Below, piece by piece: positions 1 through 64,000 of a stretch of DNA of 64,000 nucleotides (within the stretch, counting starts at the first letter, position 1; each line of letters opens with the position of its first letter). The stretch is from the IMG/VR virus record IMGVR_UViG_3300043443_000309, one strand, 5' to 3'. Origin of the DNA: an uncultured virus (IMG/VR IMGVR_UViG_3300043443_000309) (taxonomy: Duplodnaviria > Heunggongvirae > Uroviricota > Caudoviricetes). Made by a program: the position numbers and the translations under genes. The notes under the pieces are model-generated. The model was not told the DNA's origin. It made no database searches and saw only the letters and a list, made by a program, of their open reading frames with translations.

Positions 1-1
1 A

Positions 2-1480
2 TTCCAAGCTACTAGTGAAACTCATACACTCGATGACATTTTTGGTAGCAGCCAAGTAGTTTGCTGGAGAGTTGATTCGGGTTCTGATTGGGTTAGAGGA
101 AGTCTGTACGATAACTATCCGTATGGTGAATACGCTAATAACTTTGCAATGCAACTCACCTCTTCGATCAATTTGTTCGCAAAAGTACCAGTAAAGTCAG
201 TAGAGTTTGACGCCAACGGAAATCCAACAGCTATCAAGGAAGATAAGTCCTCCAACGATCACATCTGGGTTATTCAGCCTAAGTTTGAAACACCTGTTCT
301 AAACTTTACCGATAGTATTAGTTCTTCGTCTTTGAGCTTGCCGACAGTTGCATCCGAATCCGTTGCTGTAGGCATGTGGCATCAATTCGGTGTTGTACCA
401 GATTCGCCTGATAAGGGTATCTTCTTAGAGGTTTCACCAATCGAAGATGCATGGATAAACAACCGTTTGAAGGCTTCGATGCCCACAGCTATCAAGAATG
501 TCTACGGTGCAACTTCTAGCATGGCTTCGTTGCTAGACATCGTGAACTTCCGCAAGAGATCAACTAGGGTTGGAGACATAGGCAAGTCTAAGACAGTTTA
601 TGAAGCCGTAGTAGCAGTGCCATTTGTCGAGAGCCAAGGCAAGAGGAAGTTCTTCGAACTAAATCGTGACGTAGCAGTACAGGCCAGAAGAATGGCAGTC
701 AATCCAAGCTATGTCCCAGAAGCATCCCTTGTTCCCGGACAATCACTTATTGACTTGTACAAAAAGATGAATAAGTATGTTTTCCCACCAACATTTGATT
801 ACTACAACTACGAAGAAAATGATCTAAACTACGCTCCAATTTCGATGTATGTATTTGAATTCTCGCACACTTTCGATCAAAACGATCTTGTAAGAATGTG
901 GCAGAACCTACCACCAGAAATCGGTACAACAACAGAGTTTGCAGAAGCTTCGATTACTCACGCCCTTAGCGCCTATGAAATTCTCGATGCTTTCAGAGCT
1001 ACTGGTGGTAATACAAATGCAAACCTAAAGTGGCTAGTGTTCAAGGTGAAGCAACGCGCCAAAACAAACTTCGAAGACAAGCAACTTGGCAAACGTTCAA
1101 ATGCTGATCCAAGATTTACCTCTTATAGAACACAAGTTGGCAATAGATCTAACGCAATTCAGGAAAAGTATTCATACAACTGGCCTTATGATAACTTCTC
1201 ACTAGTTGAATTTGGCAAGATGGACTTTGAAGTTATCGCAAAACCAATAGTTGCTCCCGGTGGCGCTATCGGACAGCAAGTGGGGATTAGCGGTACTGGA
1301 ATAAATACCAACATTTCTACCACCACAACTGGTGTTCCTACCGCACCAGCAGTCAACCCGAACCTAAGCCCAACTTCCGCACAAGTATCTTCTATCGTAC
1401 AGACACCACCCTCTGCACAAACGGTAGGTCAATCTACACAGCCAAGCATTCAGTTAGTTCCAAAGACTAGGACCAGATAA
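2..1480 (+). CDS. Putative virion structural protein, 5'-truncated by the window edge
   Basis: The frame of the 149..1480 ORF stays open back to position 2. It lies among large Ser/Thr-rich virion-type ORFs and has a Thr/Pro/Gln-rich C-terminal tail. Confidence 0.55.
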   Translation, partial: FQATSETHTLDDIFGSSQVVCWRVDSGSDWVRGSLYDNYPYGEYANNFAMQLTSSINLFAKVPVKSVEFDANGNPTAIKEDKSSNDHIWVIQPKFETPVLNFTDSISSSSLSLPTVASESVAVGMWHQFGVVPDSPDKGIFLEVSPIEDAWINNRLKASMPTAIKNVYGATSSMASLLDIVNFRKRSTRVGDIGKSKTVYEAVVAVPFVESQGKRKFFELNRDVAVQARRMAVNPSYVPEASLVPGQSLIDLYKKMNKYVFPPTFDYYNYEENDLNYAPISMYVFEFSHTFDQNDLVRMWQNLPPEIGTTTEFAEASITHALSAYEILDAFRATGGNTNANLKWLVFKVKQRAKTNFEDKQLGKRSNADPRFTSYRTQVGNRSNAIQEKYSYNWPYDNFSLVEFGKMDFEVIAKPIVAPGGAIGQQVGISGTGINTNISTTTTGVPTAPAVNPNLSPTSAQVSSIVQTPPSAQTVGQSTQPSIQLVPKTRTR

Positions 1481-1512
1481 TAAGTCTGGTCCCTACTTAG
1501 TATAGGTGTAAA

Positions 1513-2715
1513 ATGGCTCAGTTTTTTGACGACAAGGAAGAGGTAATAGACATTGAATTGACCGAATGGGGTAAATACCTTTACTCTATCGGGAAGTTCA
1601 AGCCAACTTATTATGCCTTTTCTGATGATGAGGTATTGTACGATAGCGCGTATGCTGGGGTATCTTCAGAAGAACAAAAAGAAATTGTTGATAGGATAAC
1701 GGATAGCACTCCGTACCTAAAACCTCATGTACGTTTTAAGGAAGCAAAGACCTATTACCAAGAATACGACTCAGCCTCTGAACCAGATGCGACCGTATTT
1801 CAAAATCCGCTTGATTCTGCTGCGCGAGTTGATACTTTACTAGAAAGCAAGATTGAACTGATAAAACAGAAAGCTGGTAGGTACTCACAATCAACAAAAG
1901 AATTAGAAAGACTTATACTCTCTAAAGTGGGGACTGTTAGGACTACCACACAGGACTACCCAGCCTTCGACGTGACCTTTCTACAAAGTAGGATTTCTTC
2001 TTCATCCAATAGTTTGGCTACAGATTTTGGATACTTGAAAATACCACAAATCAATGTAAATTTGCAAAACATTATCACTGTTGTTCCTCCGAATACTGAA
2101 TTTATTAGTCGTGTCACAGATGGTAACATCGCTTCATTCCAAGCGGATTTCTATACTAATGTTAACGAAAGTGATGTCTTCCCAGATGGCTCAAAAATAG
2201 TGATGGAAACAAACTTTCTAGCGATTGATGTATTCCAGAATGGAGCAGAGTACAAAAATCAAAACTTTAACGTTCAAGTATTCGAAAGAGTGCAAGAATC
2301 AGGTAGTTTTGTGCTAAAGCCACTGAAGCTTGAGCCACAGACTAATGGTGTGGACGAAAACGGTTTCTTGATTCCAGTATCTCCACTTGAGTTGTCTGAG
2401 CTTGAGATTAATGCCTCTGCTAGAGAATCCCTTAATGATGGTATTGTTAACGCAGGATCCTCGGACGGAGATTACATTTCGAATTATTTCTCAATTCAAA
2501 TAGACAGGGAAATACCAAATGAAGTTTTGTGTTCGCTAGCTAAACGAATTACTAAGCTTGGTGGTAACATACGTCTTGATTATGACGTAGAATGCAGTGA
2601 TAGTTTGCTGACATTCCGTAATGGTTCACTAGTTAGGAATGTTGTTAGCGAGGGCGTCGAGGTAGTACAAGCTGCTTGTGATGAAGAACAAGGGGGAACA
2701 GGATGCCACAACTAG
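1513..2715 (+). CDS. Putative baseplate/tail structural protein
   Basis: 400 aa. N-terminus (IELTEWGKYLYSIGKFKPTYYAFSDDEVLY) resembles that of 10052..10957. Preceded by a CTACTTA motif. Confidence 0.5.
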   Translation: MAQFFDDKEEVIDIELTEWGKYLYSIGKFKPTYYAFSDDEVLYDSAYAGVSSEEQKEIVDRITDSTPYLKPHVRFKEAKTYYQEYDSASEPDATVFQNPLDSAARVDTLLESKIELIKQKAGRYSQSTKELERLILSKVGTVRTTTQDYPAFDVTFLQSRISSSSNSLATDFGYLKIPQINVNLQNIITVVPPNTEFISRVTDGNIASFQADFYTNVNESDVFPDGSKIVMETNFLAIDVFQNGAEYKNQNFNVQVFERVQESGSFVLKPLKLEPQTNGVDENGFLIPVSPLELSELEINASARESLNDGIVNAGSSDGDYISNYFSIQIDREIPNEVLCSLAKRITKLGGNIRLDYDVECSDSLLTFRNGSLVRNVVSEGVEVVQAACDEEQGGTGCHN

Positions 2716-5700
2716 GCCAAAACTTTGGTATTTCGACAGAACCGCCGGAAACCGGTGTGTATGACGTAGCTGAGATAGGTCGCGTTGAAATAAAAGATGA
2801 ATCTATAGAAATTGAAGGTATTATTATAGATACTCCAATTCTATCGATTCCCTTGCAACCGCCAGCCCCACCAGCAGATTCTACTCCACAAGTTGCTATC
2901 ACACAAGCTGGTTTAGGAACAACTGGTACCATTTCTATAACACCTGCTAACTCTATAACACCTGCTAATGGCGGAACATTCGGTGCCCCTGACAGACCAC
3001 CAGCCTACCATACTCCTGTTACAGCTTCATGTACATCAGCGTCAACAGAAGATACGCCAGTTGCTGGACCAGACCCAGCCGATCCTGAGCCTCCGGAAGA
3101 TCCACCGGCTTCCGGCTCAGTCCCGCCAAAAGGCAAACACTTTTACGATCCTAGCGAATGTGAAACTTGCTGTCATTCGCCTACTGATAGTCCATCACAA
3201 TTTTACACTTATTGTATGTTGTTAAGTACCGATGAACTTGTAACAAAAATGATAGAAACTGGATACATTGATCAAGTTTATCAATCGATCCCAGTTTTAC
3301 AGGCAAAATACGAGAAAGGTTTACCGGGCGCTTATCTACAAGAAATGAGCTTCCTAGATTTCACCAAACAACAACAAAACGCTTTAGTTAATAGCGTGTT
3401 ATTTACAAGCCCTTCTCAAATGATGTCGATGGAGCCAGTATTGAACCCGCCTGCTGCTGCACCTGTACCATCACTGCCTATCTTTAGGAAAGAAATTGAA
3501 GCTTATCAATTCCAAAGGAAATTCACTTTTAAGATTCCGCCAAACCTACAGCATTTAGCACTATTTGTATTTGTTAGATTCGATCAGATTAACTTCAATA
3601 ACTACTATAACTTGTCCACCAGAGCAATTCCGCAAGGTGTATACACAGGTCCAGTAAAAGAACTGGTGGTCATAAAGAATGCTAACTTAACAACAGTTGC
3701 GACAACTCAAGCGGTAGTCCAGACGAGTACTTCTCTTGCAAGCTCGCCGTCGTATTCAATGGCCCAATACGGTACAGGTATTTCTACACCACCTCCGCTA
3801 ATACGCCGCCGCCCTGTACAAAAAGTAGTACAAACAGTAAGTCCTGTGGCTAGTATTAGAAGCAGTAGAGTGATGAACTTGATCTTGAAGTATTGCTCCA
3901 CTTCGATAACAGAAGCACTTCAATCCCAAAAGGGTATTCAAACTGGCTCACAACAAGCATCTTTCTGGCTCTCTAGAAGGCCAGATGCAAATTTACTTTT
4001 CTTTATGTTTAACCAAGAGCAGTTGATTATGAACAATTCTTTTATACCAAGCATGAAGACAAAGGAAGTATACACAGATCAACCACTGGAATCTATTGAA
4101 GTATTCAAGGTCGATTCCTTGAATGACAATAGCGAAGAGTTAATAAATACTAGCGCAGGGGTTAGGACCACAAAAGGCTCTGCTATAAAATCTGTACGCT
4201 ATACAAAAACTAAAACGCTTGAGGACTCAGAATCGGTGGGTGCGGATGGAAAAAACATCGTATTATCACAGATAGTTGAACTTCCAAATCCCTCCCGTGG
4301 TATTAAGCTTCTACAAGTATTAGATTCTAGTGACACCTCTGGCGAATTCGCTTATCGTGTGTCTTTCACATTTAAAGACCCCACAATTTCCTTCTTGGTC
4401 GAGCAAACTAATGATTACATCTATAAGCTAAACCAATTTGTCGATTTGTTAGAGACTGTTAAATCGATGAAAAAAGAGATAAAAGAAGGTCGTGTTACTA
4501 CAGACCAGTTGTTTGTTGATTACATGAATGCAGTAAAGGCAGCTATCTCAAAAGCTATGTTATTACTAGGAGTATTACCAAGTAGCGATTATAATTCAAC
4601 AGTATTTATGAATTATGTTACCACATTGGCGAATCCTAATGCGACTCTTGAGGATCATGAAGACCTGTATAAGATCTTGAAAACGCTACAAGATACTCTT
4701 GTATCTATAACAGAAAGTGCCGGTGGAAGAATTGCTTTATTATCCGACATTGCCTCAACGCCCTCAAATTCCAGAGCGGGTAGGAATAGTAGCGGAATTC
4801 TTAAAACTGTCGATGTAAGCTCTCAAAAGTTTTCAAGATCAATTGGGACTGGTATTGATTTCATTTCAATGGAAGATAGTGACGGCGTAACTCAATCTGG
4901 TAAAGTGATTTATGATGCCACATTCCTACAACAAAGATCAGAAATAGAGTTTAATAAATTCTGGGATTCGAATTCCTCCAATCAACTTGGTACACAGGAA
5001 AATTACATTAGAAATAGTTGTAAATTCTATTTAACCCCAACTAGAGTATACGGTGTCGAGGAGACATTGAATCTCTTAACGACCGGGGACTTCAACGATA
5101 CATTTACAGAAACAATAAAGAAAGTGAAGCCTGCTAAACAAGGAAAAGCAACAAAATCTGGTACATTCGCGATGATACTAGACTCTTTGGAAGACATCCC
5201 TGCATCACTACAAATCGTGGAAACTAATTTCAACTTTATGTCTGCCGATCCAGAAACAGCAAATGTTTATGACTTAAGTGATAGATACCTTCAGTCTCAT
5301 AACAATTTTAAAACAGGTGAAATTGACACTTTCGAAAACAAAAAAAGACAATCATCTAACTTCGATTCTAAGATGGATCAAATTCTATTACAATACGAAT
5401 CAAGTATTATTGAAGGCTTTCAAAACATTCATAAAAGCTCAATAGATGCTGCTATTAGAACACAAACAACCCTAGAACAACTAGTAGATTCTGAGGCTCT
5501 AACTGATCTACCTCCTTCCTTGGCAGCTTATAGTTATAGAAATAGAAGTGTTTCAAAGTTCTCCACATTCACATCAAAGTATGGTCTGCTTTCTGATCCG
5601 TCTAACCAAGTATACTTGAACAACTTCTTCGGTGTGATCGGACGTATCCAATACGCAGTTATGAAGCCGTCGAATTTGAACTCTATAGGGTGGAAAAACC

Positions 5701-6011
5701 TAGATTCGGCTGCATTATCAAATAGTGGTTTTCTGTTCTGCCGAGTACTGCCTTTAACAGATAGAGAGCTTAGCATAGATTGCGATCTAGATAATACAGA
5801 GATCTATAATCAGTATTTTGGATTGCAGCTAAACCCGGTTAAGACAAAGATAAAAGAAAATCCAAGTGTAGTTAGACCACAAAGAATGGTAACTTCGGAT
5901 AATTTAAGTGCAACCCAGAAAGCTGTAGAAAAAAGAATGCAAATGATTATGGCGCAAAAGACTACTTACGATACTGGTACCCCAATCGTGTATTCTAAAA
6001 TCATACGATAA
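2703..6011 (+). CDS. Large hypothetical protein, probably virion structural
   Basis: 1102 aa ORF with a Pro/Thr-rich N-terminal region and a Cys cluster (CETCCH); structural-gene neighbourhood. Confidence 0.45.
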   Translation: MPQLGQNFGISTEPPETGVYDVAEIGRVEIKDESIEIEGIIIDTPILSIPLQPPAPPADSTPQVAITQAGLGTTGTISITPANSITPANGGTFGAPDRPPAYHTPVTASCTSASTEDTPVAGPDPADPEPPEDPPASGSVPPKGKHFYDPSECETCCHSPTDSPSQFYTYCMLLSTDELVTKMIETGYIDQVYQSIPVLQAKYEKGLPGAYLQEMSFLDFTKQQQNALVNSVLFTSPSQMMSMEPVLNPPAAAPVPSLPIFRKEIEAYQFQRKFTFKIPPNLQHLALFVFVRFDQINFNNYYNLSTRAIPQGVYTGPVKELVVIKNANLTTVATTQAVVQTSTSLASSPSYSMAQYGTGISTPPPLIRRRPVQKVVQTVSPVASIRSSRVMNLILKYCSTSITEALQSQKGIQTGSQQASFWLSRRPDANLLFFMFNQEQLIMNNSFIPSMKTKEVYTDQPLESIEVFKVDSLNDNSEELINTSAGVRTTKGSAIKSVRYTKTKTLEDSESVGADGKNIVLSQIVELPNPSRGIKLLQVLDSSDTSGEFAYRVSFTFKDPTISFLVEQTNDYIYKLNQFVDLLETVKSMKKEIKEGRVTTDQLFVDYMNAVKAAISKAMLLLGVLPSSDYNSTVFMNYVTTLANPNATLEDHEDLYKILKTLQDTLVSITESAGGRIALLSDIASTPSNSRAGRNSSGILKTVDVSSQKFSRSIGTGIDFISMEDSDGVTQSGKVIYDATFLQQRSEIEFNKFWDSNSSNQLGTQENYIRNSCKFYLTPTRVYGVEETLNLLTTGDFNDTFTETIKKVKPAKQGKATKSGTFAMILDSLEDIPASLQIVETNFNFMSADPETANVYDLSDRYLQSHNNFKTGEIDTFENKKRQSSNFDSKMDQILLQYESSIIEGFQNIHKSSIDAAIRTQTTLEQLVDSEALTDLPPSLAAYSYRNRSVSKFSTFTSKYGLLSDPSNQVYLNNFFGVIGRIQYAVMKPSNLNSIGWKNLDSAALSNSGFLFCRVLPLTDRELSIDCDLDNTEIYNQYFGLQLNPVKTKIKENPSVVRPQRMVTSDNLSATQKAVEKRMQMIMAQKTTYDTGTPIVYSKIIR
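2934..2969 (+). repeat. In-frame 18-bp tandem duplication (SITPAN x2)
   Basis: tctataacacctgctaac followed by tctataacacctgctaat. Confidence 0.9.
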
Positions 6012-6032
6012 CCAGTTGGAACGGGCACTTGA

Positions 6033-9000
6033 ATGAGATCAGCAACCCAGAAATTTCTATTCGTAAATAACAATAACTACCGACAGCTAGAACTGCCGGT
6101 TATAGGAAACACTACCGGCGCTGCAACTACCGTAGCTAGTAACGTAGTTCGTAGAGGCTTAGTTGATCGATTTAGACAAATCATAGGAAATTACTGGTAT
6201 GCTAGAGGGGTAGACGGAAAACCAGATGATACGGGGTTTCCTTACCAGAGTGGCAATCCAGTAGATGATAAATCTTCGATGACATGGGGAGAGAAAAGAA
6301 GATACCCTTTTGAAATCAGATTAGCTTCTACCCACTCATACACAACTTACACTAATCTTCCAACAACTTTAAAAGTCACACCGATTACGCTTATTGCCGA
6401 CAGCCGTTTCGGCCCTTATCCTGACTGTTTAACATGTTGGTATCGTTATCTTTACGGGGTTGATCAACTGGACCCAACAACCCCAATCGATAAGGTTTTC
6501 GGCTTTGATCCGCTAAGGCTCCAAGACGTAGAATCAGTGGTTCAGGTAAACATACCCGGCGTTGCTACTCCATACTATCTAAAAGCCGCCGCCTCTTTAA
6601 CTATGTTAGTTATTACAGAGGCTGGACTTCCAACAACAGATAGGCTAGCCGAGTTGGGAGTAGACATTAGCTACCTAAGTGCTGGGCGAAATCTGGTAAA
6701 CGCTATAAGACAAGCAGTAATGCCTTTAACAACTGGAAGTCTAGCTGGTGGTCTTTCGTTGTCGTTTGATGCAAAGTTGTTTAGAGATTCTTACTTTGAA
6801 AATGGTATAGCAGCAGATGAAAAACTAGAAGAAAGCATCGAGTCAAACCTAGATTTTGAATTAAATGCATCAGTCCAGTTCAGACATAATTACACTGCTA
6901 AAGAATACGAAAAGATAAATAATGAAAACATCTCTGTTTTTGGTTATGAAGCCGAACGCTTGGTTAACATGTATGAATACCTTTATAATAGTAAGAGTGT
7001 AGTGTCGGCAGAAATAGTCAAGCTCAGAAGTCAGATCGATTGCTTTGCAGAAAATCTTAAGCTCTTCTTTAGAAACCCCAATGTTCAGAAAGGTGGACTT
7101 ACAACAAGAGTGATTTATGTGTTAGCGGAGACTGTTCCACTAATCAATAAAACATACCCATTTCAAGATCTAATGCCCTATTATTCTAGGATAAAGTTCG
7201 ATCTTGAGGAAACAGGTCCGATGGGCGCGGCGCTGGAAGAGACAAGAAATGATGGCATTGTTATGCGACACATGCAAGAAAACAGAGGCGTGTATGAGGC
7301 TAACAATTATCGTACTTTCAAGCAAACCTTTGCAAAAGCCAAGAAAGGTTCAAATTACATCTCAAAACTCATCCCAGAAACAAGAGATGTAACTTTAAAA
7401 TCTTGGGGTTTCTACGAGTGGATGCTAAAGCTCGGGGATAGACTTTCATACGGAGTACCACCGGTCGATCAGATGCCTTCTGACAGCATCATTATAAATG
7501 ACAGCACGAAATCAGCTCTTGCAACAAGAGGGGTCTCTACTCTTGCAGCAAATTACGAGTTGGCAGTTAAAGCACTCCACGCTAAAGCCACTGATCTAGT
7601 AAAATTCTATTCTAGAGATTACGTTGATCTCCTAAAAGGCAAGATGCCGTATAGAGAGGTAGTGGCTTATAAGATACAAAAGTATGGCAATCTTTCTGTC
7701 ACTTCAGACGTTACTAGCACTGCTACCATACTAGGTACAACCTTATACGAGTCTTTGTATGGCGACAATGGTGTTATTTCGACCCAACAAGCCCAGCCAA
7801 TACAAGAAATCTGGTTTTTTAATACAGCAAAAGAAGACATAATAAACTATGTCGATACTCAAATAATGAGCGATAAATACTATACATACGTTGTAAATTC
7901 GTATGTGTTGTCATTAGACAGTGATTATTACTATACAAATGCTACCGCTCTTAAATTCCCATGTAACGATGTATTCACAGAATTTCCATTTGCTGCAAAA
8001 GGACAACCACCAACTTGGCTATCACAGCTAAGTACTGCCTATTTGTCTCTACTTCGCCAGAATGGTGGTCTAACTTATAGTTTGGCGTATGATGCCTCTC
8101 TTGTGGACCTTGCTTCTAGAAGTAGCCTTCCTTTTGAATCTTCTAAACATGAGTTGAAACTTATGCTCATGCTAAACCCAAATGGATGCAGCCAAGTCGG
8201 AGCAACAGCTATCTACCCAACAGAGATACTAAGGATGATAGCATTGTATGGGGTCGATGGTACGCAAACTAGACTCACAAATTTGTTTGTTAGTTGTTTA
8301 GATGGTACATTAATTGCCGGTGGTTTTAGAGAAACTGTAGTTGCCGCTATTCTAGCAAAAGTAACAAAATACATTACCGATGGATGTGTCACAGCTAAGT
8401 TGTTAGCAAGTTGTGATAGAAAGACAGATGATCCGTGTCTTGCTACCTTGACTATCGGCGCTAGACAGAACGCCAAGTACTCCTTACCAGAAGAATACGA
8501 AGCAGCTATTTCCGCAAAGATCTCAGCAATTCTATCTAATGAAACAGGAGATACCATTGACATCTCTAATCTAACCCCTGAGCAAATCGAACCAGTTGCT
8601 TCTATCTTTATAGAAATACTTAATACTTTGTATAATACTGGAGCTTTAACCGTAGATCCTAATACTGGTGAAAATGCTGCTATAGTTCGTGACTTTTTTG
8701 AACAGATTGAGACCTCGGGGCAAATAGAAGTAAGTGATGTCATAGTCCTGTTGTCTCTTTTGAACGCAGATCTAGGACAAATGAAGTCTGTTATGGGAAG
8801 TATAAGCGCAGAAATAAATCAATTTTTGCAAGCATTCTTCGATGTCTCAATAACCGTGGGCGCGGACATAACAGCGGATTATAATTCAAATACTCTTATT
8901 TATCAATCTATGATGAGGTTTGAGAAAACTGACATAACTTGTACTCCCGGACAGGCAGTAATACAAGACAAAAACATAAAGATAACTTGCGAATGTAGAG

Positions 9001-50003: not shown

Positions 50004-50020
50004 CAAAGGAGTGTTCTAAA

Positions 50021-55201: not shown

Positions 55202-55258
55202 TAAAAACTACTTATACTCGACCGGAGTGCTTCGGCACTCCGGTTTCGGAGTATGGGT

Positions 55259-55471
55259 ATGAAAGAAGAAGACGAGCGTTTGTATCAGTTTGATCGCGAA
55301 TACACTGTATTGATAGTTTTCATGATGATTTTGCTTTGGTCTGCGCTGCCGTTTTTCATTGCCATGAACAGCAAAGAAGAACCAGACGTAGTACAAGTAT
55401 CTGAAGCTATGAATAAAGTTTATGTTGTTAGCAAAGATCATTCTAGAGCGCACGCATTTACAACAAACTAA
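55259..55471 (+). CDS. Small single-TM membrane protein
   Basis: TM segment VLIVFMMILLWSALPFFIAM; GGAG SD; alternative ATG at 55253. Confidence 0.55.
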   Translation: MKEEDERLYQFDREYTVLIVFMMILLWSALPFFIAMNSKEEPDVVQVSEAMNKVYVVSKDHSRAHAFTTN

Positions 55472-55482
55472 ATGGAGTTTTC

Positions 55483-56613
55483 ATGGCCCGTAAGACAGAA
55501 GTGAAGCCGGGCAAACTATCCATTGCAGAGATGAGAAACCTTGTCAATAAGAAATACGGACAAGAGATTGCTCACGATCTATCCAAAGAAAATCCTACAG
55601 AGGTAACCGATTGGGTACCCACAGGAGCGCGCTGGCTAGATTCAATCATCTGTCGTGGAAAGCTTGCTGGTATTCCCGTTGGAAAGATTACAGAGATTGC
55701 CGGTCTAGAAGGTACTGGTAAATCCTACATGGCTGCTCAGATTGCAGCTAACGCTATGGCCAAAGGAATGGACGTAGTTTATTTCGATTCAGAATCAGCA
55801 GTAGATCCAGAGTTTTTGGAAGCTACTGGTTGTGATCTAGATAAGCTCTTGTACATTCAGGCAACAACAACAGAACTAGTATTGGAAACAATTGAAGAGC
55901 TTCTATCTGCTAATAACGGATCAATGTTCTTTATTTGGGATTCGCTAGCTAACACACCAGCAGCAGCAGACGTTGAAGGTTCATTCGATCCTATGTCGTC
56001 TATGGCTATGAAGCCTAGAATTCTTTCTAGGGCATTCTCAAAGCTAACAATTCCTATTGCTAATACTAAGTCTACCCTTCTAATTCTAAATCAGCTAAAG
56101 ACGAACATTACTTCGAATAGGGCTGAGCTTTTGACCGATCCTTACTTCACTCCCGGTGGTAAGGCACCAGCATACGCTTATTCATTGCGTATTTGGTTGA
56201 CTGGTCGTAAAGCTAAGGATAGCTACATTCTAGATGAACGTGGATACCCTATCGGTTCAGAAGTAAAAGCCAAGATCAAGAAGTCTCGTTTCGGTTCATT
56301 GAACCGCGAATGTACCTTCAAGATTATTTGGGCTGGTGGTCTCGCTAAGGTTCAAGACGAAGAAAGCTGGTTCAATGCAGTCAAGTCGTCTAAGCATCTA
56401 GAGCAAGCTGGTGCTTGGTTCTCGTTGGTCTATGAAGATGGTACTAAAGAGAAGTTCCAAGCAGCTAACTGGAAAGAAAAGCTGGAATCTCAGAAGTTCA
56501 GAGATCGCGTTCTGCAATTGATGGATGAAGAGATTATTGTCAAGTTCGAAACTAGAGAAGGCAATGCTGAAGATTACTTCGACATTGATTCTGAACCAAG
56601 CGAGCTAGACTGA
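55483..56613 (+). CDS. recA: RecA/UvsX recombinase
   Basis: GIPVGKITEIAGLEGTGKS, YFDSE, IWDS, LNQLK, TPGGKA and KKSRF motifs. Confidence 0.93.
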   Translation: MARKTEVKPGKLSIAEMRNLVNKKYGQEIAHDLSKENPTEVTDWVPTGARWLDSIICRGKLAGIPVGKITEIAGLEGTGKSYMAAQIAANAMAKGMDVVYFDSESAVDPEFLEATGCDLDKLLYIQATTTELVLETIEELLSANNGSMFFIWDSLANTPAAADVEGSFDPMSSMAMKPRILSRAFSKLTIPIANTKSTLLILNQLKTNITSNRAELLTDPYFTPGGKAPAYAYSLRIWLTGRKAKDSYILDERGYPIGSEVKAKIKKSRFGSLNRECTFKIIWAGGLAKVQDEESWFNAVKSSKHLEQAGAWFSLVYEDGTKEKFQAANWKEKLESQKFRDRVLQLMDEEIIVKFETREGNAEDYFDIDSEPSELD

Positions 56614-56635
56614 CAATCGCTTGACAGCTTGCTGC

Positions 56636-56664
56636 TCGACTCGTAGCCCCTCATGCGTTATAAT
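56636..56664 (+). promoter_or_regulatory. Sigma70-type promoter TCGACT-17-TATAAT, embedded in a hairpin
   Basis: -35 at 56636-56641, -10 at 56659-56664. Confidence 0.7.
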
Positions 56665-56683
56665 AAAAGCGTATGAGGGGTTC

Positions 56684-57154
56684 ATGAGTTTGACTAAGCG
56701 CCAGCGTAGGTATTTGGAACTGGCTAAGAAGATTGCGACCAGTTCGGATTCGCCCGACTATCGGCATGGTGCCGTGCTTGTCAAGGGTGGTTCTGTTATC
56801 AATACGTCTTGCAACGATTTGCGTTCTGTTTGGTGGGCAAATCGTTTTCGCAATCATAACTGTGGTCATGCCACGCAACACGCCGAGGTCGGTGCTGTTC
56901 TTGGCATTGCTCGCGACGTTACCGATGGGGCTGTTATGTATGTCGCCCGTGTTGGTAAGCGTAATGACTTTCGGCTTTCTAAGCCGTGTCCGATGTGTCT
57001 CCGCGTTATGGAACATGTCGGGATCAAGAAGGTGGTTTACACCGTTGATGATGAACATGTGGCCAGTATCAAGTTGAATGCTGGCTTGACGGATGATGAT
57101 CTTTTCTATCAGACTAGGCAACCGCAAAAGAAGGAGGTAACCAATGGCGACTGA
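56684..57154 (+). CDS. Cytidine/deoxycytidylate deaminase family protein
   Basis: HGAVLVKGG, HAE and SKPCPMC Zn motifs; ATG 56684 follows GAGGGG. Confidence 0.85.
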   Translation: MSLTKRQRRYLELAKKIATSSDSPDYRHGAVLVKGGSVINTSCNDLRSVWWANRFRNHNCGHATQHAEVGAVLGIARDVTDGAVMYVARVGKRNDFRLSKPCPMCLRVMEHVGIKKVVYTVDDEHVASIKLNAGLTDDDLFYQTRQPQKKEVTNGD

Positions 57155-58139
57155 TAATGCTAAGCGAGTTATGATTATTGATGGTTTGAACATGTACCTG
57201 CGAGGCTACATTGTCAATCCATCTATCTCAACCAATGGTAACCCTATTGGTGGAGTTGTTGGTTTTCTTGGGTCACTCAACAAGCTTATGCGCGAGCTAA
57301 AGCCTACCCAAGTCGTTATCTGTTGGGATGGTCCCGGCGGCTCTCAGAAGCGTCGTGAGATTGTCAAGGAGTATAAGGCTGGTCGTAAGCCTATCCGTAC
57401 CAACTACCAAGTGGAAGGTATGAATGAACAAAGCCAAAAGGAAAATCAAGTTTGGCAACATTCCTTGCTGCTTGAAGTTCTGAACGAAATGCCTATTGTT
57501 CAGCTTATGCTTGAGCATGTTGAGGCAGACGATCTTATTTCATACGTCTGCTCTCATCAGAACTATGCTGGTTGGCAGAAGGTTATTGTATCTTCCGATA
57601 AGGACTTCTTGCAACTTCTGAATGAGGAAACAATCTTGTTCCGTCCTATTCAAAAGCAAATTCACACTACCAAGAATGTTATTGAGGAGTTCGGGATTGC
57701 ACCTGAGAACTTTGCTGTTGCTAGGGCTATCTCTGGCGATAAGTCAGACAATCTTCCCGGTATCAGCGGTATCGGGCTTCCTACGGTTGCTAAGCGGTTT
57801 CCTTTCTTGAAAGAGACCAAGAGCTACTTCCTTCCTGACATTTTGCAATACTGTCAAGACAACCAAAAGGCATCTGCTGCCTACAAGAGCATTGCTAGCA
57901 ACTTTCCGGTTGTTGAAAGCAATTACAAGATGATGAACTTGACGCCTCCATCGATTTCCATTCAAGGCAAAGAGAAGGTCAATTATGCTTTGGATAACTT
58001 TGCTTTTGATCTGAACATCACCAACTTGAAGTCGCTCTCGCTGAAGAACGGCTTTGCAGCTTTCGATTGGTCTGACATTACCGTTAGCCTTCGACGGATT
58101 GTGTCAAGCAACAGCAAACAGCTTGACCATGCACAGTGA
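57144..58139 (+). CDS. 5'-3' exonuclease / RNase H (T4 rnh-like flap endonuclease)
   Basis: IIDGLN, WDG, YKAGR, EADD, SSDKDFLQL and GDKSDNLPGI.GIG motifs. Confidence 0.92.
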   Translation: MATDNAKRVMIIDGLNMYLRGYIVNPSISTNGNPIGGVVGFLGSLNKLMRELKPTQVVICWDGPGGSQKRREIVKEYKAGRKPIRTNYQVEGMNEQSQKENQVWQHSLLLEVLNEMPIVQLMLEHVEADDLISYVCSHQNYAGWQKVIVSSDKDFLQLLNEETILFRPIQKQIHTTKNVIEEFGIAPENFAVARAISGDKSDNLPGISGIGLPTVAKRFPFLKETKSYFLPDILQYCQDNQKASAAYKSIASNFPVVESNYKMMNLTPPSISIQGKEKVNYALDNFAFDLNITNLKSLSLKNGFAAFDWSDITVSLRRIVSSNSKQLDHAQ

Positions 58140-58151
58140 TTCGGTTATGAT
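58123..58151 (+). promoter_or_regulatory. Sigma70-type promoter TTGACC-17-TATGAT
   Basis: Near-consensus boxes upstream of the helicase; shares sGTTAT context with the promoters at 15823, 56636 and 62359. Confidence 0.7.
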
Positions 58152-58178
58152 AGAGATCTACAAAGAAGAGGTACACTA

Positions 58179-59600
58179 ATGTTGGAACAGAAGCCGGTAA
58201 ACTTCGCACAGTACGGCAAGTCTTTCCAAGAAGACCTATGTAGCTTGATTCTCGATGATCGGCCTTTCGCTGATCAACTTCTTGAAGTATTTGATCCAAA
58301 TTTCTTGGAACTAAAGTATCTTCGTGTATTTGTCGAGAAGATTGTTGAACACAGGACAAAGTATAAAATTCATCCAAGTCGTAAGACCATGGTGACTATT
58401 ATCAAGTCTGGTCTGAATGACGAGAACGATGCTACGAAGAAGCAAGTTGTTGATTTCGTAGCAAGGGTATTCGCTAGGGAAGAAGTAGAGCAATCAGAGT
58501 TCATCAAGGATACTTCACTTGATTTTTGCAAAAAGCAAAAGCTAAAAGAAGTAATGATCAAGTCTGCGAAGCTAATCAACACAGCTTCATTCGATGAAAT
58601 CACAAAGCTTATCACGGATGCTGTAAAGCTTGGCTCATCTACAGACTTTGGGTATGATTATCTAAAGGATTTCGAACGTCGTTTCGAACTAAAGTCAAGA
58701 GATCCCATTCCCACCACATGGTCAGAGATTGACCAGATTACCGGTGGCGGTATTGGCAAGGGTGAGTTGGGTGTTGTCATCGCCCCTACGGGTGCCGGTA
58801 AATCGATGGTATTGGTGCATTTGGGCGCGCAAGCAGTCAAGCAAGGTAAAACGGTAGTCCACTACACCCTAGAGCTATCAGACACCGTTATCGCGCAAAG
58901 ATACGATAGTTGTATTACACAACTTCCTCTAAGCGAATTGATGGACCACAAAGAAATCATCCGTCAATCAGTCGAGGAGGTTCCCGGCGCACTAGTTATC
59001 AAGGAATACCCCACCAAGACAGCTAGCGTGAACACCCTCCAATCGCACCTTGAAAGGCTGCGAGCAAAGGGTGTCAAAGTTGACATGGTTGTGGTAGACT
59101 ATGGTGACTTGCTAAAGCCTGTCACAAGAGATAAAGAAAAGAGGAATGAGCTAGAATCAATTTACGAGGGACTTAGAGGATTGGCACAGCAGTTCCAATG
59201 CCCTATCTGGACTGCTTCACAGACAAATCGCTCAGGGTTGAACGCTGAAGTTATTACAATGGAGTCAATCTCAGAAGCATTTTCAAAGTGTTTCGTAGCA
59301 GACTTCATCTTCACGGTTTCCCGCACGGTCGAAGATAAGCAAACAAATAGCGGTAGGATCTTTGTCGCCAAGAATCGGTTTGGACCTGATGGAATCGTAT
59401 TCCCTATTGACATGAACACTCGCAACGTTCACATTGGTATGAAGGTTCAAAACACAAATCAAGATCCCTTGTCACTTGGCCCAACAACAAATCTAACAGC
59501 CAAAGATCAAGCTCAGAGACTCAAAGATAAGTATAAGAAGTTTAGACAATCACTAAGAACACAAGGAACGGAGAACACATCAAATGAATCTAGCAACTAG
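58179..59600 (+). CDS. Replicative DNA helicase (DnaB/gp41-like)
   Basis: APTGAGKS, YTLE, IKEYP, VVDYGDL, TASQTNR and KNRFG motifs. Confidence 0.93.
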   Translation: MLEQKPVNFAQYGKSFQEDLCSLILDDRPFADQLLEVFDPNFLELKYLRVFVEKIVEHRTKYKIHPSRKTMVTIIKSGLNDENDATKKQVVDFVARVFAREEVEQSEFIKDTSLDFCKKQKLKEVMIKSAKLINTASFDEITKLITDAVKLGSSTDFGYDYLKDFERRFELKSRDPIPTTWSEIDQITGGGIGKGELGVVIAPTGAGKSMVLVHLGAQAVKQGKTVVHYTLELSDTVIAQRYDSCITQLPLSELMDHKEIIRQSVEEVPGALVIKEYPTKTASVNTLQSHLERLRAKGVKVDMVVVDYGDLLKPVTRDKEKRNELESIYEGLRGLAQQFQCPIWTASQTNRSGLNAEVITMESISEAFSKCFVADFIFTVSRTVEDKQTNSGRIFVAKNRFGPDGIVFPIDMNTRNVHIGMKVQNTNQDPLSLGPTTNLTAKDQAQRLKDKYKKFRQSLRTQGTENTSNESSN

Positions 59601-61440
59601 AATTTTGTCGGACATCACAGTCCACATGAAGTACGCAAGGTATCTTCCTGAAGAATACCGCCGTGAATCTTATGAAGAAATCACGGAACGCAACATGCAA
59701 ATGCACATCAAGAAGTATCCTCATCTTGAACAAGAGATAAAGGATGCTTACAAGTTTGTTATCAATCGTCAGGTATTGCCTTCAATGCGTTCAATGCAAT
59801 TTGGTGGCAAGCCAATCGAGATTGCTCCAAACAGGATCTTCAACTGCGCTTTTATGCCTATTGATGATCTTCGCTCATTCTCAGAGGCAATGTTCTTGCT
59901 TTTGGGCGGAACAGGTGTTGGCTTCTCAGTCCAAAAACACCATGTTGAGAAACTACCTGAGATCCGTCGCCCATCCGGTCGCGAAAAGCGTTTCCTTGTT
60001 GGAGACAGCATCGAAGGTTGGGCAGACGCCGTTCGCGTTCTCCTACAGTCTTACTTCCGAGGTACAAGCCGAATTCGCTTCGACTTCTCAGATGTTCGTC
60101 CAAAGGGCGCTCGTTTGGTTACTTCTGGTGGTAAAGCACCGGGACCACAGCCACTAGTTGAGTGTCTGGTCAAGATTGACGGAATGTTGAATGCAAAGAG
60201 AGACGGAGAAAAGCTAACTCCTATTGAATGCCACGACATTATGTGTCACATTGCTGACGCAGTTCTTGCTGGTGGTATTCGTCGTGCTGCTCTCATCTCA
60301 CTATTCTCTGCCGACGATGACGAAATGATTGCTTGCAAGTCGGGTAATTGGTGGGAGACAAACCCACAACGCGGTCGTGCCAACAACTCTGCCGTTCTTC
60401 TTCGCCACAAGATTGATAAGGAATACTTCTTGGATCTATGGCAACGCATTCGCGAAAGCGGTTCAGGCGAACCCGGCATTTATCTAAACAACGATAAAGA
60501 TTGGGGAACAAATCCTTGCTGTGAAATCGCACTTCGTCCTTACCAGTTCTGCAATCTTACAGAAGTAAATGTAAGCGACGTTGAGACACAAGAGGACTAT
60601 GAAGCAAGAGTTCGTGCTGCTGCCTTTATTGGCACTCTACAAGCGTCTTACACCGACTTCCACTACCTTCGCCCAGTTTGGCAACGCACAACTGAGAAGG
60701 ACGCTCTAATCGGCGTTGGAATGACCGGCATTGCTTCTGGTAAGGTTCTTGATCTTGACATGACAAAAGCAGGCGAAGTTGTGAGAGAAGAAAACGCAAG
60801 AGTAGCAAAACTACTAGGTATCAACCCAGCAGCAAGAACAACCTGCGTTAAGCCTTCTGGAACAACCTCACTTGTCCTTGGAACCTCGTCAGGCATTCAC
60901 GCTTGGCACAACGACACTTACATTCGTCGCATCCGTGTGGGCAAGAATGAAGCAATCTACACCTACCTTGCCGAGAACCACCCAGAACTTATTGAAGACG
61001 AATACTTCCGTCCTCACGACACCGCTGTTATTTCTGTTCCCCAGAAAGCACCAGAGGGGTCAATCGTGCGAACCGAATCCGCTCTTGATCTCCTAGAGAG
61101 AGTAAAGAAGGTAAGTCAAACTTGGATCAAGTCAGGACACAAGAAGGGTCAAAACACCCACAATGTTTCCGCAACCGTTTCAATCAAGAACGAGGAATGG
61201 GAACCAGTTGGCGAGTGGATGTGGGAAAACCGCGCATTCTACAATGGTCTATCTGTTTTGCCTGCGTTTGAGCACACTTACAAGCAAGCACCTTACGAGG
61301 ATTGCGATGATGAAACCTACAACAAACTATTTGAGGCTCTAAAATCAATTGATCTCAACTATGTCCACGAAGTAGATGACAACACCAACCTCACAGATCA
61401 GGCTGCGTGCGCGGGTGGCGGAAGTTGCGACTTGAAGTGA
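59584..61440 (+). CDS. nrdJ: Class II (B12-dependent) ribonucleotide reductase
   Basis: FNCAF, GTGVGFSV, GGIRRAALI, RANNS, GEPG, TNPCCEI, CNL, VKPSGT and C-terminal CAGGGSC. Confidence 0.9.
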   Translation: MNLATRILSDITVHMKYARYLPEEYRRESYEEITERNMQMHIKKYPHLEQEIKDAYKFVINRQVLPSMRSMQFGGKPIEIAPNRIFNCAFMPIDDLRSFSEAMFLLLGGTGVGFSVQKHHVEKLPEIRRPSGREKRFLVGDSIEGWADAVRVLLQSYFRGTSRIRFDFSDVRPKGARLVTSGGKAPGPQPLVECLVKIDGMLNAKRDGEKLTPIECHDIMCHIADAVLAGGIRRAALISLFSADDDEMIACKSGNWWETNPQRGRANNSAVLLRHKIDKEYFLDLWQRIRESGSGEPGIYLNNDKDWGTNPCCEIALRPYQFCNLTEVNVSDVETQEDYEARVRAAAFIGTLQASYTDFHYLRPVWQRTTEKDALIGVGMTGIASGKVLDLDMTKAGEVVREENARVAKLLGINPAARTTCVKPSGTTSLVLGTSSGIHAWHNDTYIRRIRVGKNEAIYTYLAENHPELIEDEYFRPHDTAVISVPQKAPEGSIVRTESALDLLERVKKVSQTWIKSGHKKGQNTHNVSATVSIKNEEWEPVGEWMWENRAFYNGLSVLPAFEHTYKQAPYEDCDDETYNKLFEALKSIDLNYVHEVDDNTNLTDQAACAGGGSCDLK

Positions 61441-61456
61441 GATAGATAGTAAATTT

Positions 61457-61497
61457 GTCCTTTCTGTCAAATAACAGGCAGAAAGGACTATTTATTT
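61457..61497 (+). terminator. Terminator-like hairpin overlapping a late motif
   Basis: 12-bp stem gtcctttctgtc/ggcagaaaggac followed by tatttattt; ACTATTTAT at 61487. Confidence 0.65.
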
Positions 61498-61508
61498 ATG
61501 TTTAGGAG

Positions 61509-61823
61509 AACAATAATGAAAATCACAACCGCACAACTTCGTCAGATTATTAAGGAAGAATTGGAGAAGGTTATGTCCGAGGCTGAAACTGCTTATGATC
61601 GGTTATCTGATAGGATAAGGACTGCGGAAACAACTGTTTCAGCAATCGAATACGACATCGAAAATAGTAATGAACTAACGGATGAGCAAAAAGAAGAGCT
61701 ACTAAAAATGGCAAAAGATAAAGGAGTAGAAATCCGTAAAAAGGTTTCTGTGCCTGCTTTCTTTCCTGTAGTATTTTGAGAACAATAAAGGTCAACAATA
61801 ATGAAAATCACAACCGCACAACT
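61509..61823 (+). repeat. 30-bp exact direct repeat (61509-61538 and 61794-61823) spanning two gene starts
   Basis: aacaataatgaaaatcacaaccgcacaact occurs twice. Confidence 0.92.
61516..61779 (+). CDS. Small protein with MKITTAQLRQIIKEE leader
   Basis: AGGAG SD before ATG 61516; late motif upstream. Confidence 0.65.
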   Translation: MKITTAQLRQIIKEELEKVMSEAETAYDRLSDRIRTAETTVSAIEYDIENSNELTDEQKEELLKMAKDKGVEIRKKVSVPAFFPVVF

Positions 61824-62340
61824 CAAAAAGATTATCTTGGAAGAAGTAGCTGTAGTTCTATCCAAAGGACCACAAGCTTCTTCACTGTTCAAGGATCTTA
61901 TGGGACAATACATCGGTTCTATTCGCGGCGGTCAACTATGGTTCCACGGCGCACACAATACCGCCAAAGGCATTTCGTTCTCTGCCGATCATCCCGGTAT
62001 TCTAGCTGACATCTACACTGCTTTTGAAGAACAATACGACGAAGCAGTTGAAAAGGCAATAGGCAACACCAGCGACGACATGATGGGTTGTCCAATGTGC
62101 AATACCAAGAAAGCTATGGAAGTTATGTCCAACTACGAAAGCCCAGCTTCAATGGATGAAGAGGGTATCATCGACACTGGTTTGCAAATGCTGCAAGACC
62201 ATCACCAGCTTATGACTGATGTGTTCGATCAACTAGAAGAAGCTGGTGAATTGCCACTAGGTGTCAATGACATGCTAGCTGCTCATGCAAACGACATTGA
62301 GACATTTATTTACTTGATGCAACAACGAGCCAAGAGATAG
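61801..62340 (+). CDS. Dps/ferritin-like protein with MKITTAQL leader
   Basis: AHNTAKGISFSADH...ADIY...YDEAVEK aligns with the Dps ferroxidase pattern HWNVKG..F...H..FEE.Y......DEIAER. Confidence 0.72.
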   Translation: MKITTAQLKKIILEEVAVVLSKGPQASSLFKDLMGQYIGSIRGGQLWFHGAHNTAKGISFSADHPGILADIYTAFEEQYDEAVEKAIGNTSDDMMGCPMCNTKKAMEVMSNYESPASMDEEGIIDTGLQMLQDHHQLMTDVFDQLEEAGELPLGVNDMLAAHANDIETFIYLMQQRAKR

Positions 62341-62358
62341 TTTTTTTGCACCCGAGCC

Positions 62359-62387
62359 TTGACGCCCTTTAGCTCTTCGGTTATACT
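62359..62387 (+). promoter_or_regulatory. Sigma70-type promoter TTGACG-17-TATACT, embedded in a hairpin
   Basis: -35 at 62359-62364, -10 at 62382-62387. Confidence 0.82.
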
Positions 62388-62406
62388 ATAAGAGTTGGAG
62401 GGCGTA

Positions 62407-62646
62407 ATGAAGCTCAACTATCTTCTCGAAAACGATAAACAAATGGAAGATTGCCCTGCTTCTGCCACTGGTAAGCAGAAGCATAATTGGGTTGCTACAA
62501 CTCACATCCAAGCAATGCGCGGCAATAACATCTGTGTCCGATTTATTTGCAAGCGTTGCAAGCGTTTGCATGATGAGTTCATGCCAACTGATAAGTACAA
62601 GTTGCATGAGCGAGCTATTGAACTGAACAAATTTATGGAGTATTGA
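62407..62646 (+). CDS. Small hypothetical Zn-binding protein
   Basis: C...H...CKRC; GGAGG SD before ATG 62407. Confidence 0.55.
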   Translation: MKLNYLLENDKQMEDCPASATGKQKHNWVATTHIQAMRGNNICVRFICKRCKRLHDEFMPTDKYKLHERAIELNKFMEY

Positions 62647-62942
62647 TGAGTAACCTAGAACCACAAAACAGAAGGCTGTACGTCCTTCCCGAAGCTTCAC
62701 TTCCCGGTTTGGAAGAACAAGCCCCTTTGATCTTGCTTCCTGAAGATTTCAAGTCCTCAAAGGAAATCATGAATGAATTCACAATCGCAGAAGTGGTAAA
62801 GTCTTCTTTGGACTGCACCTCTGAGTATTTCCCCGGTACTAAGGTTGTGTTTCCAACACACTTGCTTGAAACCGTTAGCATCCGTGGTCAGGACTATGCA
62901 TTCATCCTTGAAAACCACATTATCGCTTCGTGGACTGAATAA
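62646..62942 (+). CDS. GroES-like co-chaperonin
   Basis: LEPQNRRLYV...LILLP...AEVV...GTKVVF...GQDYAFILENHII follows the GroES pattern. Confidence 0.7.
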   Translation: MSNLEPQNRRLYVLPEASLPGLEEQAPLILLPEDFKSSKEIMNEFTIAEVVKSSLDCTSEYFPGTKVVFPTHLLETVSIRGQDYAFILENHIIASWTE

Positions 62943-63160
62943 TGTCTGAAATTGTAAACCATCCTTCACATTACGGTGGAGCCAACAATCAGTACGAGGC
63001 AATCAAGGTTATTGAAGCTTGGGAGCTTGGCTTCCATCTTGGAAATGTTGTCAAATACATTTCACGGGCTGGTAAGAAGCACAATAGAGTGTTAGAAGAT
63101 CTAAAGAAAGCCCGCTGGTATTTGGACCGGCAAATCGAACAGTTGGAAAAAACAAAATGA
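62942..63160 (+). CDS. DUF3310 family protein
   Basis: VNHPSHY...EAI..I...GFHLGNVVKYISRAGKK...EDLKKARWYL. Confidence 0.88.
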   Translation: MSEIVNHPSHYGGANNQYEAIKVIEAWELGFHLGNVVKYISRAGKKHNRVLEDLKKARWYLDRQIEQLEKTK

Positions 63161-63576
63161 AACAAGAACTTGAAAGCAAACTTTACGAGAAATACCCTGA
63201 CATCTTCCGTCAGAAAGACCTTCCTATGTCCCAAACTTGTATGTGTTGGGGGCTTGAATGCGGAGATGGTTGGTATAACCTCATCGATTCGGCCTGCGCT
63301 CTTATTTCACATCAGATCAAATACAACAAGTGCCCACCAGTTGAATACACCCAAGTCAAAGAGAAGTTTGGCGGTCTTCGCATCTATTACACAGGCGGAA
63401 ATGACTTTGTTGATGGCGTGATCTCGACTGTCAGTTATCTGAGCCAACAGACTTGTGAAACCTGTGGCAACCCCGGTAAACAGACAAACGAAGGTTGGAT
63501 TAGAACACTTTGTGAACCATGTAATGAACAGAGAAAACTTGCCCGACCTACAAGGTTTGATAGGAGTGACCCATGA
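63157..63576 (+). CDS. Conserved phage hypothetical protein
   Basis: ECGDGW, QVKEKFGGLRIY and CETCG.PG...GWIRTLC motifs. Confidence 0.7.
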   Translation: MKQELESKLYEKYPDIFRQKDLPMSQTCMCWGLECGDGWYNLIDSACALISHQIKYNKCPPVEYTQVKEKFGGLRIYYTGGNDFVDGVISTVSYLSQQTCETCGNPGKQTNEGWIRTLCEPCNEQRKLARPTRFDRSDP

Positions 63577-63995
63577 AATACGAGGTAGATTTGAACGAGG
63601 TTGACCGCATGGGCAGAGAATGCTCTAAGATGGAATGCTTTGAATGGCTTCCGGGAATGCTCTACATCCATCCAGCCTATCATGACGGCTCTACTGGCTA
63701 CATGCAACGGATTGGCGATGCGGATACTGCAAGGAAGCTCAAGGGTAATTCGTTTATTTTCCCAGTCTTGACAGATCCAGCTACTCTCGGAGCCATTGAA
63801 CATGGTATACTAGCAGAGTCAGGAATGTTCATCCATCCACTCTTCGGTTTCGTAGACGACATGGTTGAATGGCCGGAAGCATTTGAACTTATCGTGCCTT
63901 ATCGGTATCGAGAAGTCAGAACCTATCCTGTGAAAGAAAACAGGATTGAAGCAATACTAGAAGGACTAAGGATTATCAATGAATACGGCGTATAA
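63573..63995 (+). CDS. Hypothetical protein
   Basis: AGGAG SD and ATGA overlap with the upstream gene. Confidence 0.55.
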   Translation: MKYEVDLNEVDRMGRECSKMECFEWLPGMLYIHPAYHDGSTGYMQRIGDADTARKLKGNSFIFPVLTDPATLGAIEHGILAESGMFIHPLFGFVDDMVEWPEAFELIVPYRYREVRTYPVKENRIEAILEGLRIINEYGV

Positions 63996-64000
63996 TAAAT

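Follow-up and report, generated by a model that had tools for sequence, protein, structure and literature searches.

The stretch of DNA analysed here (the window) comprises 64,000 bases of an uncultured virus, IMG/VR record IMGVR_UViG_3300043443_000309, and this report concerns one four-base palindrome, ATAT, which it lacks completely. The window is part of a large, distantly T4-like freshwater myophage. Its open reading frames (ORFs) were compared with the families of PHROGs (60 ORFs), of Pfam (50) or of both. The virion genes identified encode the terminase, portal, prohead protease, major head protein, tail sheath and tube and baseplate proteins, and the genes for DNA metabolism encode an SbcD-SbcC fusion, a primase, a gp32-like protein, a UvsX-like recombinase, a DnaB-like helicase, a ribonucleotide reductase and a dCMP deaminase. 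The nearest named phages are Flavobacterium phage immuto and Microcystis phage Mel-JY01, with about 43% identity in the terminase. Megablast of 24 kb of the window against the GenBank phages gave no match, and an exact 40-mer from the window start had no match in IMG/VR. Near-identical DNA was present in runs labelled as freshwater, aquatic and subsurface metagenomes, from 16 studies and mostly in small shares.

None of the 63,997 4-mer positions of the window (57.8% A+T) is occupied by ATAT, compared to 442 copies expected from mononucleotide composition, 258 under an order-1 Markov model and 239 under a maximal-order Markov model. A codon-based null gave the same picture: when synonymous codons were shuffled within each of the 59 called genes separately (200 shuffles; coding share 95.8%, 55 of the 59 genes on the + strand), 273.1 +/- 11.4 copies were obtained and never fewer than 238. 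Moreover, the 2,668 non-coding bases also contain no ATAT, with about 22 expected. ATAT is the sole 4-mer without an occurrence in the window and, since all eight of the 5-mers that hold it are empty as well, the avoided word is the 4-mer itself and no longer site. Other palindromes are present, namely TATA (181), AATT (303), TTAA (110), GATC (298), AGCT (334) and CTAG (242). Separate six-base enzymes (AATATT, GATATC, CATATG) were considered as the sole cause and rejected: they cover three of the 16 NATATN contexts, and all 16 are empty.

The absence of ATAT is reflected in the choice between synonymous codons. All 252 NAY codons preceding an AT- codon end in C, while in other contexts T is used 1835 times and C 1248 times. 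The isoleucine codon ATA is found in 0 of 208 cases before a T and 244 times elsewhere, and tyrosine following a codon that ends in A is always TAC (159/159), compared to 372 TAT and 260 TAC in other contexts. Overall usage of ATA, TAT and NAT is unbiased. Because this codon choice depends absolutely on the context, and overall usage is unbiased, single-codon bias is insufficient to explain the loss. These results support strong sequence-specific selection on ATAT, beyond composition and codon usage. They also bear out the original prediction, made from the letters alone, that ATAT is purged where several hundred copies would be expected (239-442 in our models), that TATA, AATT, TTAA, GATC, AGCT and CTAG all occur (110-334 copies each), that codon pairs avoid the word and that selection has been strong; counting against Markov and codon-shuffled nulls upheld the depletion and ruled out single-codon bias, and the changes are synonymous, lineage-specific and accompanied by other purged palindromes, as described below.

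Base-calling error is unlikely to have produced this pattern, because the reading frame determines which base of a potential ATAT is changed, and the change is always synonymous. Contigs from four runs, belonging to four other studies, were compared with the window over 20 kb; the X3 and X4 pieces, of 312-853 bases, showed 0-4 differences. Among the strain variants listed, one of 40 creates an ATAT, compared to 1.6-3.7 expected per run, a comparison that has no power.

ATAT is one item of a wider restriction-avoidance fingerprint, made up of CCWGG, 23 six-base palindromes and TTAA, which the original prediction missed while being right about ATAT itself. CCWGG occurs twice, against 55-73 copies expected, and is absent from 11 of 80 related loci in one set. 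Leaving aside six-base palindromes with an internal ATAT, 23 of the remaining 59 are absent, compared to 31 of the 3,974 non-palindromic 6-mers. The sites concerned are:

16474-16478 and 51660, strand not applicable: the two CCWGG sites that the window retains
Absent six-base palindromes, first part: TACGTA, AGCGCT, AGGCCT, GTCGAC, GTGCAC, TGCGCA, ACGCGT, CAGCTG, CGATCG, CTCGAG, GACGTC, GAGCTC
Absent six-base palindromes, second part: GCATGC, CCTAGG, CGTACG, CTGCAG, CCCGGG, CCGCGG, CGCGCG, CGGCCG, GCCGGC, GGCGCC, GGGCCC

CACGTG has one copy, and these 24 words summed (the 23 absent ones and CACGTG) occur once, compared to 227 times expected. Nine other GC-rich six-base palindromes are untouched (102 copies vs 90 expected), and AAGCTT (49) and GCTAGC (25) are normal. 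The six-base pattern is thus bimodal: each site is either purged or left alone. Note that those non-palindromic 6-mers that have no copy in either orientation fill out degenerate sites; GRGCYC is found 0 times vs 31.5 expected, and YACGTR once in total. By codon shuffle, TTAA is reduced to 109 copies vs 303 expected.

We compared the window with related phages. ATAT was surveyed in sets of 79, 80 and 80 related loci and in 64 loci of at least 8 kb from a further 80. An observed/expected ratio (O/E) of 0.05 or less was found only in L080/L243, that is, in the window's own lineage. In the three sets for which it was computed, the median ratio relative to composition was 0.78-0.98, and the lowest values otherwise ranged from 0.11 (L112, 2.6 kb; L250, 10 kb) to 0.35. 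A scan of about 4 of 64 metagenome parts with the capsid protein returned at least 80 loci, with none of those listed close or free of ATAT. Weaker ATAT depletion by codon shuffle was seen in other lineages (L188, 30/93; L190, 19/71; L270, 27/72; the 155-kb relative G002, 447/786), accompanied by depletion of other palindromes; the ATAT ratio of G002 (0.57) is similar to those of its AATT, CATG and GTAC. These cases are weak hints. As a separate observation, L250 and L247-L249, which are IMG/VR loci with about 82% ThyX identity, have most 4-base palindromes depleted together with GATC spared; by codon shuffle, L250 has TGCA 0/17, CTAG 2/18, AGCT 5/26 and ATAT 5/25.

The purging of other 4-mers was surveyed in those related loci that reach 10 kb (154 loci, 2.67 Mb), counting an O/E of 0.05 or less as a total purge. 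The number of loci with a total purge was as follows:

CGCG 11, GGCC 9, AGCT 6, CCGG 4, GATC 4, AATT 3
ACGT 2, CTAG 2, TCGA 1, TTAA 1, ATAT 1 (L080)
TATA, CATG, GCGC, GTAC and TGCA 0

Palindromes account for 44 instances (43 for ten words, plus L080 for ATAT), compared to seven for the 240 non-palindromic 4-mers. In Mel-JY01 (L241, positions 1-50000) both CTAG and GATC are gone (0/159 each) and ATAT occurs 780 times; immuto has no CGCG (0/47) and 434 ATAT; G002 likewise has no CGCG. The words purged in these relatives are, as far as we know, all Type II specificities, CTAG for instance being the site of MaeI of Microcystis. Palindrome purging thus appears to be a habit of the family, and the choice of ATAT appears to be specific to the window lineage. 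Mel-JY01 also has 28 AGCT and 36 TCGA, and shows an excess of CCCGGG (44 vs about 1 expected) and CCGG (308 vs 48).

The closest comparison is provided by a sister genome of 128 kb (G001; loci L358-L364), which is collinear with positions 19-63381 of the window at 65-86% DNA identity and whose terminase has 95% protein identity to that of the window. The sister carries 844 ATAT vs 1,028 expected; what it avoids, along almost its whole length, is AATT (57 vs 1,028; the window has 303). Eighteen of these 57 AATT fall into a single terminal bin of 4 kb that may have been imported recently. The sister clade shares the six-base purge (1-2 copies observed vs 52-65 expected; in L161, 2 vs 60), and G001 shares that of CCWGG, with nine copies in its 128 kb. 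Avoidance of ATAT is therefore recent and specific to the window lineage, and comes on top of an older fingerprint that the sister has in common with it.

To follow individual sites, we took orthologous codon pairs with an ATAT in a sister and with both amino acids conserved. None of the sister sites is kept in the window (0/21 for L001, 0/39 for L161, 0/33 for L162 and 0/23 for L164), which gives 0 of 116 when pooled, the sisters not being independent. Control 4-mers were kept at 70-81% (ACAT), 50-63% (ATAC), 50-68% (GATC) and 31-50% (TATA). ATAT was mostly replaced by ACAT (NAT-ATN to NAC-ATN), a synonymous change, and conservation of the amino-acid pair at ATAT sites (0.43-0.57) was like that of the TATA and ATAC controls. 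In G001 itself, the regional dip in ATAT was set against how similar each region is to the window (rho -0.45, p 0.08); TATA is lowered in those bins too, and this weak hint is not cleanly specific to ATAT.

Next, the genes of the window were split by the presence or absence of DNA similarity to the sister genome. The backbone class (40.7 kb, matching the sister) has 0 ATAT vs 147 expected by codon shuffle and 32 TTAA vs 188, and the cassette class (19.3 kb, no match) has 0 ATAT vs 125 and 75 TTAA vs 109. The cassette class consists mostly of four large genes, at 2703-9992 and 47565-51397. The individual genes, with observed/expected counts, are:

2703-6011, + strand: variable cassette gene; ATAT 0/17.1, TTAA 19/17.6
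6033-9992, + strand: variable cassette gene; ATAT 0/30.1, TTAA 16/19.3
47565-50003, + strand: variable cassette gene; ATAT 0/20.8, TTAA 14/17.6
50021-51397, + strand: variable cassette gene (32% GC); ATAT 0/16.4, TTAA 11/14.5
15874-24611, + strand: backbone block with the SbcD-SbcC fusion, terminase and portal, purged of ATAT and TTAA
15874-18990, + strand: SbcD-SbcC fusion, a single ORF of 1,038 amino acids with an N-terminal SbcD-like phosphoesterase joined to an SbcC-like ATPase; ATAT 0/13.4, TTAA 0/18.7
20975-22561, + strand: backbone gene (terminase); ATAT 0/6.8, TTAA 0/8.0
22566-24611, + strand: backbone gene (portal); ATAT 0/6.7, TTAA 0/8.1

TTAA avoidance is confined to the backbone. 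Selection against ATAT, judging from these counts, appears to have acted on all the DNA now present, including the most recently exchanged modules. At the DNA level the genes at 2703-6011 and 6033-9992 match the sister genome barely or not at all, and the cassette genes at 2703-9992 belong to no PHROG or Pfam family. A Protein Atlas search with two cassette proteins (including 6033-9989) returned viral hypothetical proteins only, and a search of IMG/VR for relatives of two cassette proteins found the sister clade at 50% for one and none for 47565-50000. From their position and variability, we infer that the cassettes are putative host-recognition modules. If they are, ATAT would be the mark of the present host, because the cassettes are free of ATAT but normal in TTAA. 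Purges restricted to the backbone (TTAA) and purges found everywhere (ATAT) in this way separate older pressures from current ones.

Taken together, the pattern makes it likely that the window lineage avoids an ATAT-specific host restriction nuclease, most probably of a Type IIP restriction-modification system. The current host, or host population, would carry a DNA endonuclease recognising the palindrome ATAT, and each unmethylated ATAT on the entering phage DNA would be a potential cut site. Variants with fewer ATAT would plate better, and selection together with recombination would have brought the number to zero and would hold it there. The avoidance signature itself is an observation: the depletion goes beyond the nulls, concerns a short palindrome, was reached by synonymous removal and differs between related phages, as described for restriction avoidance; the host agent is inferred from it. 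The original prediction had offered a host defence nuclease, a DNA-modifying toxin or a phage-encoded nuclease. Among the three, the data favour a restriction-type host DNA nuclease, since palindromes and not other words are purged across the family and the relatives purge other 4-base palindromes. They neither support nor exclude the other two agents, for which the 64 kb contain no candidate gene.

Several points weigh against this interpretation. To our knowledge, there is no ATAT-specific restriction enzyme or methyltransferase, and the proposed agent is hypothetical. The literature search found neither an ATAT-specific enzyme nor a palindromic ATAT methylation motif. In agreement with the original prediction, which knew of no standard Type II prototype for ATAT, both ATAT and TATA were described in 2013 as sites for which no restriction enzyme was known (PMC3724700). 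Across 200 genomes, another study gives ATAT a mean O/E of 0.85 with a variance among the smallest of the 4-base palindromes (PMC3077040). The main texts of two metagenome-methylome papers do not mention ATAT; their supplements could list further motifs. A tRNA scan of the window found none and thus gave no lead to the host. As host leads, 34 related loci in metagenome-assembled genome bins of many phyla were also considered; none was close, and they were judged to be mis-binned phage contigs. The window covers 64 kb of a genome whose length, going by the sizes of related contigs, is possibly above 128-155 kb. Moreover, ATAT is self-complementary, and strand asymmetry is therefore no help in excluding an agent that acts on RNA.

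A further point against it comes from the IMG/VR contig L080, which is independent of the window and 99% identical to its positions 54294-64000, and which carries three ATAT in 10,888 bases. These correspond to the following features of the window:

54422-54427, + strand: codon pair GAC-ATT (Asp-Ile) in the gp32-like gene; L080 has GAT-ATC there, making ATAT
63979-64000, + strand: first bases of a thyX-like gene that continues past the window; the L080 copy has two ATAT (L080 positions 10100 and 10109)

The gp32-like codon pair was compared directly (window 54393-54463 vs L080 100-170). The two thyX sites lie 40-50 bases past the window end, which corresponds to L080 position 10060. Thus, the claim that ATAT is purged from the genome stands for the 64-kb window, for which the purge is established, and went too far as a genome-wide statement; genome-wide, the purge may be near-total without being absolute. 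Window and L080 have 55 differences, 46 of them synonymous. Under neutrality, the window should have gained about 4.2 ATAT after it parted from L080, and none is seen (P about 0.016, a value that assumes equal divergence of both lineages and extrapolates from 8.8 kb), while the single gain in L080, compared to 0.57 expected, fits neutrality and so counts on the opposite side. The comparison suggests that selection against ATAT may be continuing in the window lineage. L080 has one TTAA in its 10.9 kb, and a ThyX-based search for more members of the lineage returned only L080's own contig. Two side observations were made on this pair: the synonymous differences are asymmetric (C in the window and T in L080 21 times, the reverse eight times), and short patches of 92-93% identity (window 61312-61941) lie inside the 99% identical DNA and suggest recombination.

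What else could remove a palindrome so completely? A phage-encoded ATAT-specific nuclease that degrades host DNA, the phage genome being immune through absence of the site, would impose a lethal penalty for self-cutting. The total absence of the word, including from recently exchanged cassettes, fits such a penalty, the trait is limited to one lineage, as the acquisition of a gene would be, and much of the genome lies beyond the window. However, no site-specific nuclease or methyltransferase was recognised among the ORFs of these 64 kb with PHROGs and Pfam, the nucleases found being limited to SbcCD, a resolvase of RuvC type and a FEN-type exonuclease. Moreover, ATAT behaves like some 25 other purged palindromes and like the 4-mer purges of the relatives, which are ordinary signatures of host restriction; L080 carries three sites that a resident self-cutter should disallow; and weaker depletion of ATAT is seen in unrelated lineages (L188, L190, G002). 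We consider a phage nuclease improbable. An endoribonuclease cleaving AUAU, encoded by the phage or by a toxin-antitoxin or abortive-infection system of the host, would have led the phage to remove the motif from its transcripts. With 55 of the 59 genes on one strand, 95.8% of the window coding and a self-complementary word, such an agent would leave an identical trace, but an RNase has no reason to prefer palindromes (16 of the 256 4-mers), the purges of the family are overwhelmingly palindromic, which points to dimeric DNA enzymes, and the non-coding DNA is also free of ATAT, though much of it is probably transcribed. There is little probability that the selection acts on RNA. Taking these possibilities more broadly, it is rather unlikely, though worth some weight, that the agent is an undescribed ATAT-directed weapon of another sort, be it a phage nuclease or a host DNA-modifying toxin or AUAU RNase that can be escaped only by total loss of the word.

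Avoidance of ATAT as a protospacer adjacent motif (PAM) of a host CRISPR (clustered regularly interspaced short palindromic repeats) system, as a TnpB-type adjacent motif or as a transposon insertion target has one attraction, in that loss from both strands would blunt all spacers together. Yet the words purged alongside ATAT are classic palindromic sites; published depletion of PAMs in phages is not known to go beyond a weak effect or to reach total loss, and 4-base palindromes are not known to serve as PAMs. Such a cause has only a slim chance of being correct. The last alternative is that no selection acts on the word at all, and that codon or mutation bias, instability of dinucleotide repeats, an artefact of assembly or base calling, or editing of the sequence accounts for the result. 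AT-only 4-mers containing TpA are all somewhat low by codon shuffle (TATA 167/231, AATT 296/425 observed/expected), as this explanation would have it. Against it, the codon-shuffle and Markov nulls still predict 273 and 239 ATAT; TATA, which is this dinucleotide repeat shifted by one base, occurs 181 times; the changed position is frame-dependent and synonymous, unlike a miscall; independent assemblies agree; and relatives have normal ATAT. An origin in bias or artefact is therefore extremely improbable.

Avoidance of a host restriction nuclease directed at ATAT is thus the interpretation that we favour, and although the evidence is indirect, the total and maintained loss of the word from a widespread freshwater phage argues strongly that such a nuclease exists in nature. 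Even a conservative reading predicts the first ATAT-specific nuclease, which would be a new prototype, and indicates where it should be looked for, in the host of this phage and in freshwater communities; an old gap in the catalogue of specificities becomes testable. The clade also offers a clean example of an arms race, in which collinear sisters have purged different 4-mers (ATAT vs AATT) on top of about 24 shared six-base sites.

One further gene is shared with Mel-JY01:

31476-31697: ribosomal protein S21 gene (Pfam E 3.6e-15), flanked by the genes for the prohead protease and the capsid

Mel-JY01 has an S21 gene at the same place. In the gene at 31765-32919, upstream of the capsid gene, many contigs of several runs end or join at 32304-32341 and carry differing acidic/lysine-rich coding repeats, which looks like a low-complexity stretch of variable length.

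Restriction-site avoidance is a textbook phenomenon; the kind of phenomenon is known, and it is the avoided word, ATAT, that is new. Mel-JY01, immuto, G001 and G002 resemble the window in their lineage-specific 4-mer purges and in their gene order, including the S21 gene, but none of them lacks ATAT. Enzymes of Type IIP for AATT and TTAA demonstrate that AT-only 4-base palindromes can be restriction sites, and both words are purged in the clade. Methylation of TTAA is reported for lake Chloroflexi (PMC6329791). Unlike these two, ATAT and TATA had no known enzyme in 2013 (PMC3724700), and TATA is purged in 0 of 154 loci. The nearest published modification motif containing ATAT is CATAT, methylated in Campylobacter jejuni ATCC 33560 as confirmed by PacBio, with the methyltransferase unknown (PMC12679398). 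This motif is a non-palindromic 5-mer from a different habitat, and it would be insufficient for the window because AATAT, GATAT, TATAT, ATATA, ATATC and ATATT are also lost.

The closest parallel is the 140-kb genome of Staphylococcus phage K, from which GATC has been eliminated against Sau3A (PMC6532042). In both cases one 4-base palindrome is wholly lost from a large lytic myophage and the loss is attributed to host Type II restriction; for phage K the cognate enzyme and the host are known, whereas here the word is ATAT, for which no enzyme was found in the literature searched. Finally, loss of recognition sites has been described as the simplest anti-restriction strategy of prokaryotic viruses (Rusinov et al. 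2018, BMC Genomics, PMC6286503). That survey begins from known enzymes and sites, whereas here the avoided site would predict an enzyme that has yet to be described.

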